The notes beneath the pieces were generated by a model that was given only the letters and a program-made list of their open reading frames with translations, did not search any database and was not told the DNA's origin. Position numbers and translations under genes: made by a program. 32,000 nt of DNA from Zestosphaera tikiterensis (GTDB lineage: Archaea > Thermoproteota > Thermoprotei_A > Sulfolobales > NBVN01), in assembly GCA_003056265.1 (NCBI GenBank), contig NBVN01000002.1, positions 480,001 to 512,000 on the forward strand. The letters run 5' to 3'. Of this stretch, positions 3,011-25,201 are shown piece by piece. The stretch's first letter is position 1. Each line of letters starts with the position of its first letter.

Positions 3011-4909
3011 TTATTTTCTAGTGGTTCTCATTATTACTAACGCGATAGCTACTATAACTATTACTGCTACAGCACCTACAGCTATTAACGTATAATCGGC
3101 GCCAGAAGGCGGTGTTGTTGAAGTTGTTACGGTAGGTGACGTTATAGGTGTTGTTGCGATGGTCGTTGGTAAGGTTACTGAGGTTGTTGCAGATGGTTGC
3201 GTTGTTGGGTGTATAGTTATAGTAGTTGTAGGTGCTGTTTGCAGCTTTACGTTATATAAGCTCATAAGGCTAAACCAATTGTCAGGTGATGCTAGCGGGT
3301 CTAAAACCCAGCCTTTCCAAGTATCGTCTCTATAAGCAAATACGAATTGCTGGTGGACGGTGTTAAGCAGTGGAACATTCTCAGCTAATATCTCCTGTAT
3401 TTTCCATACAAGAGCTTTCCTAGCTTCAATATCTGTTGTGTTAGCTTGCTTTTCAAGTAAGGCGTCAAGTCCAGGTATGGTGCAGTGGCCGTTATTCCAA
3501 AAACCTTTGGTGTGGAAGATGTCCCTTAGAATGTCTGGGTCGAGAGATCCTACACCACCTATTATTAAAATGTCGAAGTCGCCGCTGTTTAATTTGTTCA
3601 CGAGTGCTGTCCATTCCAGTGGTTGGTAGTTGACTTTAACTCCTATCTCCTTTAGGTTATTAGATAGTATTTCTCCCCACCTAACCCTTAAAGGATCGTA
3701 GGACGGGGAGTATATAGTTAACGTGAATGTTGTGCCGTTGGGATAGTCTCTCCATCCATCGCCGTTTCTATCAATGAGCCCTAGCTCGTTTAGAAGCTGA
3801 GCTGCTTTAGATAGGTTGAAGGGATATTTCTTCTCTTTCGGCGGTAGGTTTTCATTATACCATGGACTAAGTACTGGCGGTAGTCTACCTAGAGATCCCG
3901 GTAAGGCATATCCTTGATACACAATGTTCACTACTTCTGTGATGTTTATTGCGTAATGAACTGCTTGCCTAAACTTAACCTCGTTCATTGGCCACCTCTG
4001 GCAGTTGAAGTAAGCGTATCTGGCGCCAGTCTCAGTTACGTTATGTAGCTTTATGTTGGGCTCAGTGACGAGCTGAGGTATTGTTTGATAAGGTATGCTC
4101 CAAGTCACCACATCTACTTCATTGTTCTTAAGAGCTAATAGCATAGCGTCTGCGTTCGATATTATCGGATAGAGTAATGTATCAATATAGGGTCTTCCTA
4201 AATGGTATTTCGGGTTGGCTACGAGCTTGTAGTATTGCTGTGGTTTATGTTCAGCGAATATGAAAGGCCCGCTTCCTATGGGAGGTTCGTTTTTATATTG
4301 AGCAAGTTCCGAAGGCTTGACGTCTTTCCATATGTGTTTAGGTAGTATGTAAACGCCGGCCGCTAGGTAGTATAGGAATGGAGCGTAAGGAGACTTAAGC
4401 TCTATTTGAACTGTGTAGTCATCAATTACTTTAGCTTCCTTTATAAATATGGCGTAGCTTGCGAACCTCGTGTAATTGTAGTAATCTCTTATGTAGTTAT
4501 ACGTAAAGGCTACGTCCTCCGCTGTTACAGGTTTGCCGTCATGCCATGTAGCGTTAGGGTAGAGCTTAAACGTCCACACCTTCCCATCTTCAGAAACGCT
4601 CCAATCCATAGCAAGTCTTCCTACGTAATTTCCGTCTGGAGCTCTAATGACTAGAGTGTCGTAAACTACGCTTATTATCATGTACTCCCAACTGGTACTG
4701 TATGTAAGTGGGTTTAAGGTGTTGGCTTCACCCATCATAGGGTCTCTGAATGTTCCTCCAGGAACTATCTTAGGGTCTCTAATTATGTAGTTAAACACTG
4801 ATTTAGTTTGATTAGCAGCGTTAACGTTCACCAGAGCTGATTGGATTATAATAACACATAAGAGCAACGTTATTATTGAAAGCCACTTCACCCTATGCAT
4901 GGCTACCAC
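3011..4909 (-). CDS. ABC transporter substrate-binding protein (family 5, peptide/oligosaccharide type) with a Thr/Pro-rich stalk and C-terminal membrane anchor
   Basis: 632 aa. It has an N-terminal signal/TM segment, then a family-5 SBP-like core (WTFKLYPNATWHDGKPVTAEDV...). The C-terminus is TTTITIHPTTQPSATTSVTLPTTIATTPITSPTVTTSTTPPS followed by a hydrophobic helix and RTTRK. Confidence 0.85.
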   Translation of the reverse strand: MVAMHRVKWLSIITLLLCVIIIQSALVNVNAANQTKSVFNYIIRDPKIVPGGTFRDPMMGEANTLNPLTYSTSWEYMIISVVYDTLVIRAPDGNYVGRLAMDWSVSEDGKVWTFKLYPNATWHDGKPVTAEDVAFTYNYIRDYYNYTRFASYAIFIKEAKVIDDYTVQIELKSPYAPFLYYLAAGVYILPKHIWKDVKPSELAQYKNEPPIGSGPFIFAEHKPQQYYKLVANPKYHLGRPYIDTLLYPIISNADAMLLALKNNEVDVVTWSIPYQTIPQLVTEPNIKLHNVTETGARYAYFNCQRWPMNEVKFRQAVHYAINITEVVNIVYQGYALPGSLGRLPPVLSPWYNENLPPKEKKYPFNLSKAAQLLNELGLIDRNGDGWRDYPNGTTFTLTIYSPSYDPLRVRWGEILSNNLKEIGVKVNYQPLEWTALVNKLNSGDFDILIIGGVGSLDPDILRDIFHTKGFWNNGHCTIPGLDALLEKQANTTDIEARKALVWKIQEILAENVPLLNTVHQQFVFAYRDDTWKGWVLDPLASPDNWFSLMSLYNVKLQTAPTTTITIHPTTQPSATTSVTLPTTIATTPITSPTVTTSTTPPSGADYTLIAVGAVAVIVIVAIALVIMRTTRK

Positions 4910-4930
4910 ACGATATACTAGGTATATGCG

Positions 4931-4938
4931 TTTATAAA
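4931..4938 (-). promoter_or_regulatory. TATA box (TTTATAAA) for the binding-protein/permease operon
   Basis: TTTATAAA is centred about 26 nt upstream of the ATG (complement of 4907-4909). That is the spacing expected for an archaeal promoter giving a leaderless or near-leaderless mRNA. Confidence 0.45.
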
Positions 4939-5200
4939 CATTCTTAAACCAAGCTTCTACTACACGCAGAGAGCACCTCCATAAAAACTTCTAAGGACTT
5001 CTTCACATCTCAATGACTTAAATCCTTAGTTTATATTTATTTAATCTAGCTTCTATTATTAGGACACTATCAATCAGTTTCAAAAAGTCTTAAATACTTC
5101 AATCTTATCGTATAGAACTAGCAAAACATAAACAAAGGCTTTAATTTTAAGTTGTAAAGCACGCTATTACGTTTCACTCACGAAAATCGTATCGTCATAA

Positions 5201-5227
5201 CTGAAAGCCTTGCCTTTAAAGGCAGGT
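5201..5227 (+). repeat. Solo copy of the CTGAAAG-hairpin motif (CTGAAAGCCTTGCC TTTAAA GGCAGG)
   Basis: CTGA-AAG is followed by a 6-bp stem CTTGCC/GGCAGG with a TTTAAA loop. Near-identical motifs lie at 18882-18908 (+) and 24884-24911 (-). Confidence 0.6.
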
Positions 5228-5275
5228 AAGTTGAAGTTTCCTACTTAGCTTGTTGCCTTCACGCTATGGGATAGT

Positions 5276-5334
5276 ACAGAAAAAGGAAAAGTAAGAAAGT
5301 CAATCTCCAATTCTTCGTTACTTTTTCCTTTTGT
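5276..5334. repeat. Long imperfect AT-rich inverted repeat (hairpin of about 20 bp)
   Basis: ACAGAAAAAGGAAAAGTAAGAA (5276-5297) faces TTCTTCGTTACTTTTTCCTTTTGT (5311-5334). They pair along most of their length with a few bulges. The repeat sits in the middle of an ORF-free 700-nt region. Confidence 0.55.
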
Positions 5335-5612
5335 ATTTGTAATAATTAACAGAAGAAAAGTTAGCAAATATTCTTTCTTCTTATATTTTCGTAATGGGAA
5401 CGATCTTTATGAACTAGGTAAGGAGGACTATTGAATGAAGCTTTGAGCTGCCTAAGGGGAGCATAGAGCAAATAGTAAAAGGTGGTAAGACGAATCGTCA
5501 ATGTAATAAAATATGATTAAAGAGTGAGATGAAGCTGGAATTTGAAATTCTGAAAGGTTAATGATGTTTGATTTTATGTGTGTTTTATTTTCTAGCAACT
5601 AAGAATAATCTA

Positions 5613-6372
5613 TTAGCATTTTTTGGGTTCTTCTTCAGCCCAGTTAAGATCTCCGTAGATTTTAACGTAGTTAAAGCCTACGTCTTTTGCTGAAGTTTTT
5701 AGTTCATATGCTGTGTAAAGCCTTATTTTATCGTTCATAAAATATGTTTTTGATGAACCATTAGGCTTAACTATCGTTATTATTCTCTTAAAGTATACTA
5801 CTGCCGTAACGTTCTCAGCATCTCTGTAGTCAATAATTATTATACGTTCATCATCGTGAGGTACGTCCCATATTGATGGCCCCTCCTTTTTACCTAAGGT
5901 AAAAGCAAAGGCTATAGGATTTGGCGCGTCAGCTATGAAAACACCCCCTGGTTTTAAGGCTTTATAAACGTTCCTCAGCAGTTTTTCGAGGTCTTCAGAT
6001 GAAGTCATATATGATATACTTGTAAAGAACATCGTAACAGCATCGAACTCTTCGTTAAAATCTATATTACGTACATCACCTTGAATAAACTTCACATTAA
6101 CGCCTAGTTTAGAAGCTTTCTCTTCAGCTATCTTAAGCATTTCACTATGTAGATCAACACCCATAACAGAATAACCTTTTTTTAGCGAGCTCTAAAGTAG
6201 GTCCACCAGTACCGCATGCTAAGTCTAAAACTTCCTTAACAGGCCTTCCAGCATCACGTTTAAAAACTTCTTCAACAAAGTCAACTAACCTAGGAACAAC
6301 GGAAGTTAAATAATCTTGATAAATAACGTCGTAATATCCAGCTAGGACACTATATAAAACATGCTCATACAT
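5613..6372 (-). pseudogene. Class I SAM-dependent methyltransferase, interrupted by a frameshift in an A7 run
   Basis: The 72-aa ORF (6154-6372) carries motif I, VLDLACGTGGPTLELAKK, then stops. The 183-aa ORF (5613-6164) continues MGVDLHSEMLKIA...GDVRN...FDAVTMFF...LKPGGVF. Removing one A from the coding-strand A7 (T7 at 6177-6183 on +) gives the continuous sequence LELAKKGYSVMGVDLHSEML. Confidence 0.8.
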
Positions 6373-17835: not shown

Positions 17836-18819
17836 GTGTGGATCTTGAAGTGTGTGGTTTGCGGTGTTAAGGAAGCAACTGTTTATCAAAGACATACAGG
17901 TATGGCACTCTGTAGGGATTGTTTTATGGAGGATATCATCAAAAGGGTTAGTAACGAAGTTAAGCGGTTTGATATGTTTAACGAAAGACATAAGCTTATG
18001 TTGGCTGTCTCAGGCGGTAAGGACAGCTACGTTCTACTCGATGTGATTTTAAAGCTGCATGATCCAAGCAGGGTAGGTGTTGTAAGCATTGTTGAGGGTA
18101 TAGAAGGCTATAACAGAGCTGAGGATTTAGTTAGGGTTAAGGGTTTAGCGTCTAAGCACGGCGTTGATGTGGTAGTTATCTCTTTAAAGGATTATGTAGG
18201 GTTGAGTTTGTCGGAGATTGTAAGTATGTCTAGAGAGAAGAGTATAAACGTTAGTCCATGTACTTACTGCGGGGTTTTAAGGAGGAAAGCAATAAATGAA
18301 GTTGCTAGGGATTTAGGCTACGATAGGGTTCTTACAGCCCATAACTTAGATGATGAAGTGCAGACAGCCCTGCTTAACGTGCTGAGGGGGGATTTATTTA
18401 GGCTTGTTCAACTACATCCTAAAGGGCCTTTATTAAGTTCTTTATTTGTACGTAAGGTAAAACCCTTAAGAAAGATTTACGAGGAGGAGATAGCTGTATA
18501 TGCTCATATAATAGGCTATGAGTTTCAAACGACTGACTGCCCCTACTTAAGATTCCAACCATCTCTTAGAGCAAGGCTACGTGAATATCTATACAGACTT
18601 GAAAGGAAAAACCCGGGAACAATGCTTAAGTTCCTTAACACGTTAGATGAGTTTCTAGAGAAGTACTTAAGTAAGTATGTCTCGTATCCTGAATTACCTA
18701 AATGTTTAAACTGCGGTGAAGCTACAGCTTACGGGAGGAAATACTGCATGGCGTGCGAGCTTCTAATGAATTTAGGGGTTGAGAAACCTAAGTATTTACG
18801 GTTAAGTCCACGTGGTTAA
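17836..18819 (+). CDS. PP-loop ATPase of the TtuA/Ncs6 (NcsA) family, tRNA 2-thiolation
   Basis: 327 aa. It has the PP-loop SGGKDS and AHNLDDEVQTALLNVLRGD. There are CxxC pairs at the N-terminus (CVVCG...CRDC) and the C-terminus (CLNCG...CMAC). Confidence 0.8.
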   Translation: MWILKCVVCGVKEATVYQRHTGMALCRDCFMEDIIKRVSNEVKRFDMFNERHKLMLAVSGGKDSYVLLDVILKLHDPSRVGVVSIVEGIEGYNRAEDLVRVKGLASKHGVDVVVISLKDYVGLSLSEIVSMSREKSINVSPCTYCGVLRRKAINEVARDLGYDRVLTAHNLDDEVQTALLNVLRGDLFRLVQLHPKGPLLSSLFVRKVKPLRKIYEEEIAVYAHIIGYEFQTTDCPYLRFQPSLRARLREYLYRLERKNPGTMLKFLNTLDEFLEKYLSKYVSYPELPKCLNCGEATAYGRKYCMACELLMNLGVEKPKYLRLSPRG

Positions 18820-18881
18820 GTAATCAACCATTACGTCAAGAAATAAATAACCTAGGTTAATCAATTATTTAGGGTTTACAG

Positions 18882-18908
18882 CCGAAAGCCTCGCCTTTTA
18901 AGGCGGGG
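18882..18908 (+). repeat. Solo copy of the CTGAAAG-hairpin motif (CCGAAAGCCTCGCC TTTTAA GGCGGGG)
   Basis: A 7-bp stem CCTCGCC/GGCGGGG (one G-U pair) with a 6-nt loop, preceded by CCGAAAG. It lies 63 nt after the thiolase stop and about 35-45 nt before the nucleoside phosphorylase start. Confidence 0.6.
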
Positions 18909-18941
18909 AGAATATTAGAGAACAGGTTCTTAGTCGGTGGG

Positions 18942-19667
18942 TTGTCAGCTATGCCTGTACATATAAAGGTTGGGAGGGGCGATGTAGCTGAGAGGGTGGT
19001 GTTTGCCGGTGACCCAGCTAGAGTACGTCAAATAGCTTCTATGCTTGATAACGCAAGGCTCGTAAATGAGAATAGAGGATTCATAACCTACACGGGGGAG
19101 TATAAGGGTATACCGATAACTGTAGCTACGCATGGGTTGGGCACGCCGTCTGCGTTAGTTGTTCTTGAAGAGTTAATATCAGTTGGTGGTAAGTATTTCG
19201 TTAGGTTGGGCACTTGCGGGTCTTTAGTTAAGGGGGTTAAGATAGGGGATGTGGTGATCCCCACAGGCGCTTCATACTATCCTGGTGGAGCACATTACCA
19301 ATACTACGGTGAGTTTGTATGTGGGCCGGCCACACCGGACTTTACATTACTTAAGAGTTTGGTTGAGGTAGCTGAGGAACGTAAGATCAATTACTTAACA
19401 GGCCCCGTAATTAGTAGCGATGCTTTCTACGCTGAAGATCCTAAATTCGTTGAGAAATGGTCTTCAAGAGGTGTTGTAGCGGTTGAGATGGAGTGTGCTG
19501 GTATATTCAACGTAGGGCTTATGAGAAGAGTTAGAACGGCAGCACTTCTAATCGTAAGTAACTCCTTAGTTGAGGAGTTAGGTCACGCTTCAGCAAAAGA
19601 ACTTGAGCAGTACGTGTTTAAAGCGGCTGAGATAGTTTTAGAAAGCTTAATTAGGGTAAAGCAGTAA
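18942..19667 (+). CDS. Nucleoside phosphorylase, PNP/UDP family 1 (purine/uridine/MTA phosphorylase type)
   Basis: 241 aa with the motifs VVFAGDPARV, TVATHGLGTPSALVVLEEL, RLGTCGSL and AVEMECAG, typical of hexameric DeoD/Udp/MTAP-I enzymes. The start is either TTG 18942 or ATG 18951. Confidence 0.8.
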   Translation: MSAMPVHIKVGRGDVAERVVFAGDPARVRQIASMLDNARLVNENRGFITYTGEYKGIPITVATHGLGTPSALVVLEELISVGGKYFVRLGTCGSLVKGVKIGDVVIPTGASYYPGGAHYQYYGEFVCGPATPDFTLLKSLVEVAEERKINYLTGPVISSDAFYAEDPKFVEKWSSRGVVAVEMECAGIFNVGLMRRVRTAALLIVSNSLVEELGHASAKELEQYVFKAAEIVLESLIRVKQ

Positions 19668-24072: not shown

Positions 24073-24579
24073 TCATTCAACACCTATATATGCGCGTACG
24101 TCCATATATTTACACACAATATCTAAAAGTTAAAAGGGTTAATAAACCTAGAGCTTAATGAATTCATGAACTAACTAAATCGGAAGCCCTACGAGTAATT
24201 GATTATAGTGAGTTAACAGTTTAAATAAAGCTTTAAGTACATAGTATAGGGTTTAAAAGCACATTTTAAGGGCGTGCGTTTCTAATGAAAGGACGTGACT
24301 TAGTAAGTAAGTGGTTGGTTGAGGAAGGGTTTGAAATCAGAAAGTTTGAAGGCGGCGTAACACCTCTGAAGGTTGTTTGGGGATTAGACGTTTTTACACC
24401 TCCCCCTAAGCTAAACATTAAAATTGTGCAGTATGAGGGTAGAGAGGACAGGTATTTCCTACTCCTAGGCGTCGGTATCTCACCAGAACATAGGAGAGAA
24501 CTAGATAGGTTGAACGTCGAGGGCCGTTTAAGGTTTTCCTCTAAGTTAGTCAGCAGAGTTTTAAGTGTTTGCAACATTT

Positions 24580-24911
24580 CTGACCTCCTCCCCGTCCTGA
24601 GGGGTGGGTTTCCCCTTCGGGCGGTTCATTGGTTTGGAGGTACATGTTTCTTCATTCACCTCCGGGCCGGGCTTCCGGCCCACTACCCCTATCCCTGAGG
24701 GACTCGGGGTTATGGAATACCTTCATCAATCATCGACCTTTAGAAGGTCTCAAAACTTCGTGTGGGAGGCATAGCGTTGATTGCGTGTATGCTTTGATTG
24801 ATTTGTTTGAGGTTTGCCTCCCACACACATCAAGCATCATCACTAAGAATAAATTAGAAGCAATTATTTATAAACCTTTCTATCCTCGCCCTAAAGAAGC
24901 GAGGCTTTCAG
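24580..24911 (+). mobile_element. 332-nt non-coding, hairpin-rich insert (MITE/PATE-like or intron-like) bounded by CTGA...TCAG
   Basis: The left end is CTGACCTCCTCCCCGTCCTGAGGGGTGGG. The reverse complement of the right end is CTGAAAGCCTCGCTTCTTTAGGGCGAGG, so both ends are CTGA-nnn-CCTC-hairpin. The flanking 10-mers are TGCAACATTT (24570-79) and TGTAACGTTA (24913-22), 7/10 identical. There is no credible ORF inside. The UUCG loop and G-U pairs favour an RNA read from the + strand. Confidence 0.5.
24884..24911 (-). repeat. CTGAAAG-hairpin motif forming the right terminus of the insert
   Basis: The minus strand reads CTGAAAGCCTCGC TTCTTTAGG GCGAGG. It shares CTGAAAGCCTCGC with the copies at 5201 and 18882, with compensatory stem changes between copies. 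Confidence 0.6.
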
Positions 24912-25201
24912 TTGTAACGTTAGTATACAGCCATCGCCTATAAACCCGCAGGCAATAACTATAGCTTTAACGTTATTTGAATCCGACGTTGAGGAAGGCT
25001 TCAAGCCTAGGTTCCTAGAGAAACTTACCGTGCTTATTAATTCCTTCTTCACCGTAGTCTCGGTTTTTAATGAGGATTTCCCAATCGTGCGTAGGGATAG
25101 ACATGAAGACTCCTACGTGACGAGCATTTAACTTAACGTCTTTTAATTAAAAGCTTTTTAAGTTTATATTCTTAAGCCATTAAATATTGTCGGTGGTTTA
25201 A

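Follow-up and report, generated by a model that had tools for sequence, protein, structure and literature searches.

A small protein-coding gene that is interrupted by a G + C-rich insert was analyzed in a stretch of 32,000 nt from the archaeon Zestosphaera tikiterensis (contig NBVN01000002.1, positions 480,001 to 512,000), which is referred to at its full length as the window. The gene encodes a protein of the family DUF2299, and the insert at 24580-24913 on the minus strand is very probably an internally deleted, protein-less and non-autonomous element of the IS200/IS605 family of insertion sequences (IS), of the kind described as miniature inverted-repeat transposable element (MITE) or palindrome-associated transposable element (PATE), which was recently inserted into the gene. 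Every testable defining feature of the IS200/IS605 family could be found at the level of the sequence. The insert is located directly 3′ of TTAC on the minus strand and, as seen from empty sites and from the flanks of related relics, no target duplication was made. A recently inserted non-autonomous mobile element was among the readings of the first-pass annotation, which was made from the sequence alone; this reading turned out to be right, the kind being IS200/IS605-type without duplication.

An interrupted gene of the DUF2299 family

The open reading frame (ORF) at 24285-24698 on the plus strand contains the native protein in its first 98 codons and G + C-rich foreign sequence in the remainder. 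The frame ending at 25131 on the same strand, which is open back to about 24910 and has no start codon of its own, continues the protein of the 5′ ORF. In the first-pass annotation, the two parts were read as one small protein in two halves, and this could be verified: the product joined by removal of 343 nt (167 aa) matches the Pfam family DUF2299 over residues 7-147 with an E-value of 2.2e-18, spanning both halves, and homologues are uninterrupted. A search of 5.8 billion proteins resulted in 13 DUF2299 homologues, of which the best shows 78% identity across 99% of the query. Uninterrupted orthologues had been proposed as a check and were confirmed for 11 of the 13, with a size of 171-175 aa and not the suggested 160-170 aa. 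The two remaining entries are truncated, P0002 (137 aa) and P0003 (114 aa). P0002 is the NCBI product of the window gene itself, a ‘hypothetical protein’ of Z. tikiterensis, which is hereby flagged as an annotation error, as it represents a truncated DUF2299 protein.

By joining 24579 to 24914, a 170-aa protein is obtained that is collinear with the homologues. In these, the junction reads V-C-N-x-C-N-V, with both Cys residues nearly invariant in the alignment. Empty sites were found in two relatives: in L002, with a 93% identical protein, the site reads TGCAACATCTGTAACGTT, and in the syntenic relative L001, with a 78% identical protein, it reads TGCAACGTTTGTAACGTC. Based on the empty sites and the homologue alignment, the insert comprises 334 nt (24580-24913), with a register ambiguity of 2 nt on the gene side. 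The length of 343 nt assumed previously had to be corrected for this reason; its removal does restore the frame, but at the cost of three residues including one Cys of the nearly invariant CxxC. The motif regarded as repeated at the junctions (S-V-C-N-I-S and S-C-N-V-S) consists of the two halves of this native CxxC-type motif, encoded by Cys-Asn-x-Cys-Asn codons. The flanking 10-mers with 7/10 identical positions, discussed as a target-site duplication, do not represent one. The imperfect flanking repeat is no longer puzzling, because an IS200/IS605 insertion makes no duplication.

By sequence comparison, 24285-24579 and 24914-25131 are thus one gene that is truly split, because DUF2299 spans both halves and the homologues are uninterrupted. 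A reading as two unconnected small genes, between which an independent gene for a non-coding RNA is located, would agree with the 5′ ORF having its own stop codon at 24698 and being annotated as a 137-aa protein. It has practically no probability, as a single Pfam domain extends over both halves, the 11 homologues of 171-175 aa are single proteins that remain collinear over the junction, a start codon is missing in the 3′ frame, and L001 carries the undivided gene between matching neighbors (TRAM and aminotransferase). This reading was rejected on the homologues, the synteny and the empty sites.

The insertion inactivates the DUF2299 gene, the protein being truncated after residue 98. In comparison with the 78% identical relative, the ratio of non-synonymous to synonymous substitution rates (dN/dS) is 0.06 in the 5′ half and 0.08 in the 3′ half. 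These low values indicate equally strong purifying selection on both halves and fit a recent insertion; the two halves look intact because the insertion is recent, and no special explanation is needed for them.

As a side observation, the DUF2299 gene of L002 leaves the window sequence after ...CAGCCATCGCCT, from about position 1793 of L002. The sequence past this point is unrelated and A + T-rich, and the product has 114 aa. This divergence could have arisen by rearrangement or by another insertion, or the short-read contig could be chimeric.

Ends of the element and its relatives

On the minus strand, the junctions read ...AACGTTAC|AACTGAAAGCCTCGC...GGGGAGGAGGTCAG|AAATGTTGC... (see Table 1 for all features). 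The insert has a G + C content of 0.56-0.60 compared to about 0.40 in its surroundings. It had been described as structured, and indeed its predicted folding is better than that of shuffled sequences, with z-scores of −3.4 and −4.3 for the two strands. For the two plus-strand ORFs inside the insert (104 aa and 56 aa), no Pfam match was obtained. A repeat scan revealed no inverted repeat between the termini of the insert, and a classical cut-and-paste MITE was rejected as a candidate, since neither terminal inverted repeats nor a target-site duplication are present.

Table 1. Positions of the gene parts and of the element features in the window.
Feature	Position	Strand	Remarks
DUF2299, 5′ part	24285-24579	+	98 codons and the first base of codon 99 (TGT, Cys)
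DUF2299, 5′ part as it stands	stop at 24698	+	read-through gives the 137-aa product of NCBI
DUF2299, 3′ part	24914-25131	+	last two bases of codon 99, 71 more codons, stop
Element	24580-24913	-	334 nt; top strand is the window minus strand, AACTGAAAGCCTCGC...GGGGAGGAGGTCAG
TTAC target (left cleavage site/transposon-adjacent motif)	24914-24917	-	directly 5′ of the left end; codons TGT AAC of the gene
Left end	24884-24913	-	AACTG, AAAG, then subterminal hairpin
AAAG	24905-24908	-	occupies the position of the IS608 left guide tetranucleotide
Left subterminal hairpin CCTCGC/GCGAGG	24884-24904	-	
TATA-box-like motif TTTATAAA	24867-24874	-	same place in relics and full-length elements (upstream of tnpA in the latter)
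Central hairpin, perfect 12-bp stem GTGTGGGAGGCA/TGCCTCCCACAC	24760-24826	-	arms 24760-24771 and 24815-24826
Guide-RNA (omega RNA/right-end RNA) scaffold module	24580-24713	-	homologous to tnpB 3′ end and right end
Right end	24580-24608	-	hairpin CCCACCCC-TCAG-GACGGGG (24590-24608, imperfect here), then 10-nt tail AGGAGGTCAG
Predicted guide portion AAAUGUUGCAAACACUUAAA	24560-24579	-	flanking gene sequence, antisense to DUF2299; predicted from the omega RNA layout

The arrangement resembles that of IS608 from Helicobacter pylori, in which the TTAC target also lies outside the element with insertion 3′ of it, the foot of the left hairpin is directly preceded by AAAG, and the right cleavage motif follows the foot of the right hairpin at 10 nt on the 3′ side (PMC3201880). 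Further common features are the missing target duplication, the missing terminal inverted repeats and full-length relatives with Y1 TnpA and TnpB. In contrast to IS608, the window copy is archaeal and protein-less, its right cleavage motif, with which the tail AGGAGGTCAG terminates 10 nt 3′ of the right hairpin foot, is TCAG instead of TCAA, and the distance from TTAC to the left hairpin is 9 nt instead of 19 nt. The right-end hairpin variant of the window copy recurs in identical form at the end of a tnpB-bearing element in Caldivirga (L047).

For the identification of relatives, archaeal and bacterial genomes (one genome per species) were scanned with a 20-nt right-end probe. In total, 54 loci were found, nearly all in thermophilic archaea, the host groups being Desulfurococcaceae (including a Zestosphaera sp.), Thermococci, Caldisphaera, Pyrobaculum, Metallosphaera, Caldivirga and Nitrososphaeria. 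Five of the 54 loci are relics of 260-339 nt with AACTGAAAGCCTCG directly after TTAC, the terminus GGGGAGGAGGTCAG, unrelated flanks and no duplication; although found via the right end alone, all five sit after TTAC. Another ten loci are 39-nt elements, in which a single hairpin is enclosed by the left and right termini; seven of these elements follow TTAC. Using a left-end probe, at least 120 loci were detected in metagenomes. Among the metagenome matches listed, the left and right ends are spaced 39-40 nt apart in at least 23 loci, 122-434 nt in at least 29, 1297-1422 nt in at least 16, and 1780 and 1785 nt in at least two, which gives at least 23 39-nt elements, at least 29 relics and at least 18 full-length elements.

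The 1.78-kb elements encode TnpA (Pfam Y1_Tnp, E-value 2.4e-40) and TnpB (OrfB_IS605, Cas12f1-like_TNB). Matching ends are 1780, 1785 and 1788 nt apart in L143, L095 and L180, respectively, with Y1_Tnp plus OrfB_IS605/Cas12f1-like_TNB in L143 and L180 and tblastn matches to TnpA and TnpB in L095. The metagenomic locus L180 is taken to lie on the same contig as the 39-nt element L008 of a Desulfurococcaceae metagenome-assembled genome. The window element aligns with the left end of L143, including the TATA-like box, and with its right 135 nt. That the ends belong to no transposase-bearing element where the relics occur is contradicted by these tnpA/tnpB elements. Furthermore, TnpB proteins of the cognate lineage proved to be abundant in hot-spring metagenomes in protein searches and also occurred in Desulfurococcaceae.

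Beside the relics, the 39-nt elements form a family of their own with the layout TTAC|AACTGAAAG, an 8-bp hairpin with a UUCA or UUUA loop, and AGGAGGTCAG, embedded in unrelated flanks. They are represented by the genome loci L008, L010, L012, L013, L018, L020, L040, L041, L053 and L056 and by at least 23 metagenome loci (e.g., L069, 1066-1108), and range over Desulfurococcales, Thermococci and hot-spring metagenomes. Either they are mobile derivatives of minimal size, or longer elements have collapsed in place repeatedly. Bacterial repetitive extragenic palindromic (REP) elements and REPINs are mobilized by RAYT, a TnpA-like Y1 enzyme. The archaeal 39-nt elements resemble them in the single short hairpin, the conserved 5′ tetranucleotide context and the many scattered sites, and differ from them in keeping both IS termini (AACTGAAAG... 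and ...AGGAGGTCAG) and the TTAC target.

No other copy of the relic is present in the 32-kb window, where only two short hairpin sites resemble the left end. At 18876-18918 on the plus strand, TTAC is followed by a degenerate 39-nt one-hairpin element, AGCCGAAAGCCTCGCCTTTTAAGGCGGGGAGAATATTAG, which matches the consensus of the 39-nt elements at 31/39 positions, contains one compensatory stem change and is intergenic between the ORFs 17836-18819 and 18942-19667. The second site is a left-end-like hairpin, AACTGAAAGCCTTGCCTTTAAAGGCAGG..., at 5199-5236 (plus strand) in the intergenic gap 4909-5613. It has neither a preceding TTAC nor a right-end tail and could be the remnant of a solitary left end or only a chance similarity.

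Two further observations concern the interior of the relics. A perfect long stem in the center is found in every longer relic (the window copy and, at the matching position, L003, L035 and L053), its sequence varying by copy (GTGTGGGAGGCA/TGCCTCCCACAC in the window, GAGTCTCGGGAGC/GCTCCCGAGACT in other relics); it was not seen in the aligned parts of the full-length element L143. The sequence GTGATGATG (24835-24843 on the minus strand in the window), about 25 nt downstream of the TATA-like box, is conserved in all relics (L003, L035, L053, L014). It could be the leftover start of a former first gene or a motif like a C-box or k-turn.

A guide-RNA module on the minus strand

At gathering thresholds, no Rfam match and also no tRNA was found in the whole window. 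Relaxed thresholds resulted only in weak minus-strand matches to sot0042 (E-value 5e-4) and HgcC (E-value 0.034). The sot RNAs overlap the 3′ ends of tnpB genes, and their terminal hairpin also occurs in HgcC RNAs and in PATEs, which are protein-less derivatives of IS200/IS605 elements (Gomes-Filho et al., PMC4615843). With HgcC (RF00062) and sot0042 (RF02656), the window element shares the 3′ consensus ...GGGGAGGAGGUCAG, the terminal hairpin and the helix layout, whereas by the Rfam gathering threshold it is a member of neither.

The last 57 nt of the element show 82.5% identity to the tnpB 3′ end of ISSis2, an element of Sulfolobus plasmids with tnpA and tnpB. In the plasmid collection, this right-end segment was the only part of the element that was matched. 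The module has the same strand and the same terminus as the tnpB 3′ regions of ISSis2 and L143, and remnants of the TnpB C-terminus are preserved in it in shifted frames (NPESLRDRG and KPMNRPKG). Elements of the ISSis2 type (Sulfolobus plasmid pHVE14, chromosome of Desulfurococcus mucosus) have in common with the window element the identical right terminus ...GGGGAGGAGGTCAG and the homologous omega RNA region including the P1-P3 helices. They differ in their left end, which appears to follow TTGAC rather than TTAC, and in a TnpB that is only about 40% identical to that of the TTAC-type elements.

Two loci of the ISSis2 type (L057, 640-830; L058, 1880-1950) combine the right terminus of the window element with an apparent TTGAC and a different sequence 5′ of the left hairpin, which suggests a swap of target specificity between otherwise related elements. 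As a further observation, TnpB proteins of both lineages, ISSis2-type and TTAC-type (P0014-P0253), show 72-89% identity between distant archaeal groups, among them Sulfolobales, Desulfurococcales, Thermoproteales, Nitrososphaeria and Verstraetearchaeota, and also occur in archaeal viruses (SMV1 and Hyperthermophilic Archaeal Virus 2), which implies frequent horizontal spread.

The analysis of the RNA structure was based on an alignment of the last approximately 135 nt from 26 members of the family, which include relics as well as full-length elements. The tested structure was drawn by hand and is nested, with 43 pairs in nine helices, which include four well-supported hairpins, one long-range helix and the terminal hairpin. 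It replaced an RNAalifold fold of the 26 sequences, in which the long-range first helix conflicts with local hairpins of a 10-sequence run. In the hand-drawn structure, 88% of the cells are paired, compared to 40-58% with the partners slid by 1-3 columns. Compensatory changes were found in 18 pairs, compared to 6-12 pairs in the slid controls, and the observed values were reached in none of 500 shuffles. At one stem position, 16 sequences have U-G and nine have C-G, a combination that can pair on the minus strand only. The first four helices are intact in the window copy. This comparative evidence speaks for a functional RNA of the minus strand, at the location in which the guide RNAs of TnpB are encoded.

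In keeping a guide-RNA module after deletion of the coding part and fusion of the left end to the right end, and in the presumed dependence on TnpA and TnpB in trans, the window element corresponds to the PATEs of haloarchaea and Geobacillus (PMC4615843, PMC10055086). It differs from these in its lineage (Desulfurococcaceae and hot-spring Thermoproteota), in the long central hairpin, which is not seen in the full-length element, and in its location within a gene instead of an intergenic region.

These results also bear on an origin of the insert as an archaeal bulge-helix-bulge (BHB) intron, which the splicing endonuclease would cut from the DUF2299 mRNA so that the full-length protein is made. 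The intact halves, the restorable frame and the strong structure of the insert would agree with such an intron, as would the pairing of UUGCAAC with GUUGUAA noted in the first-pass annotation, which can join the junction regions. The 7-bp pairing does exist, but results from the near-palindromic tandem codons TGCAAC/TGTAAC and is hence native codon sequence. In none of the three registers that agree with the homologues (5′ cut at 24577-24579, length 334) was a 4-bp central helix with flanking helices found, the numbers of pairs in central, outer and inner helix being 3/0/0, 2/0/0 and 0/2/2. A scan of 2025 junction pairs gave a single weak BHB-like combination, which would delete conserved residues, and no Rfam intron family was detected. 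Moreover, the ends of the insert are common to tnpA/tnpB elements, its conserved structure belongs to the strand complementary to the mRNA, and the site is empty in close relatives. A BHB intron is therefore extremely unlikely. With the BHB introns known from protein genes (cbf5), the insert has in common only that a non-coding stretch interrupts a crenarchaeal protein gene. It is about 10 times longer, has transposon ends, lacks a BHB at its junctions and is missing in the relatives.

An element that combines mobility and splicing had also been considered. Such an IStron-like hybrid, in which a ribozyme intron with fused IS200/IS605 ends excises itself from the mRNA, would match the type of the element, and hybrids of this kind are reported from bacteria (bioRxiv 10.1101/2023.11.20.567912). 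In the region, no group I, group II or other ribozyme family of Rfam was found even at E-values up to 10. The top strand of the element is antisense to the gene, so that the mRNA holds only its complement, and the guide-RNA module and the two end hairpins account for all conserved helices. As splicing finds no support and the structured RNA, opposite in strand to the gene, is of the transposon guide-RNA type, the chance that a hybrid of this kind is present is close to nil.

Proposed transposition, possible retention and meaning of the insertion

Several points weigh against the interpretation as an IS200/IS605-type relic. Transcription, guide use and mobility of the element are all deduced from its sequence. 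In the window copy, the long-range helix of the scaffold is weakened and the right-end hairpin is imperfect, and the Rfam scores are far below the gathering thresholds (23.6 bits compared to 88 for sot0042 and 19.7 compared to 50 for HgcC). Neither tnpA nor tnpB was found in the 32-kb window by tblastn. The source genome is not among the matches of the genome scan, although it contains the probe, and a transposase and a TnpB partner are presumed there. The best 120 matches of each of two TnpB searches include no protein named after Zestosphaera, which is uninformative. Finally, the proposed check for copies and empty sites in relatives yielded the two empty sites, but no near-identical second copy of the relic, and the central 100 nt were unmatched among about 175 fetched loci.

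For the IS200/IS605-type relic, the following course of events is proposed. A TnpA (Y1) encoded elsewhere would have moved the element as single-stranded DNA and pasted it directly 3′ of TTAC. In the IS200/IS605 family of single-strand ‘peel and paste’ transposons, a single-stranded circle made by TnpA is inserted 3′ of the target without duplication, and excision is scarless with exact restoration of the donor sequence (PMC3201880; PMC10055086). The junctions are only vaguely alike because target duplication does not occur in this mechanism and terminal inverted repeats are not required. Excision by TnpA would restore the gene exactly, and the site minus 334 bp would read ...AACATTTGTAACG...

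The motif TTTATAAA is the putative promoter, from which transcription would read through the scaffold into the flank and yield the guide AAAUGUUGCAAACACUUAAA. Its predicted position is based on the build of omega RNAs (PMC10055086; PMC11043419). With TTAC as the adjacent motif, this guide would match only the restored empty site, TTAC followed by AAATGTTGCAAACAC..., the predicted target on the DNA being TTAC-AAATGTTGCAAACACTTAAA. A TnpB acting in trans could re-cut alleles that have lost the element and thereby favor its retention, as was proposed by Meers et al. for PATEs; a precedent exists in omega RNA-bearing PATEs that rely on TnpB in trans (PMC10055086). It is possible, though rather doubtful, that the relic is kept by TnpB in trans, which would make the interruption of DUF2299 reversible, and that the 39-nt relatives are mobile in their own right.

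Beyond this, the element could be domesticated, either as a maintained and reversible DUF2299 switch with excision by TnpA and TnpB-guided re-insertion, or for regulation by an antisense transcript. In favor of this are the undamaged state of the two gene halves, the antisense orientation of the predicted read-through RNA relative to the 5′ half, and the exact restoration of the donor by IS200/IS605 excision (PMC3201880; PMC10055086). Nothing sets such a switch apart from a simple recent insertion, however. The empty sites of the relatives demonstrate that the insertion is not conserved, and no transposase or TnpB has been demonstrated in this genome, which makes a domesticated element quite improbable.

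The result is mainly a correction, as the insert represents neither a long intron in a crenarchaeal protein gene nor a new class of intervening sequences. The insertion is an event of an ordinary kind, in which a transposon relic disables a small conserved Zestosphaera gene of no known function. It provides a clean archaeal case, with empty sites, of an omega RNA-bearing PATE inside a coding sequence. Furthermore, the old ‘HgcC-like’ high-GC RNA signature of hyperthermophiles is tied to a defined TTAC-targeting IS200/IS605 lineage with autonomous, relic and 39-nt forms. If mobile, the 39-nt elements would be the smallest IS200/IS605 derivatives and an archaeal counterpart of the bacterial REP elements.

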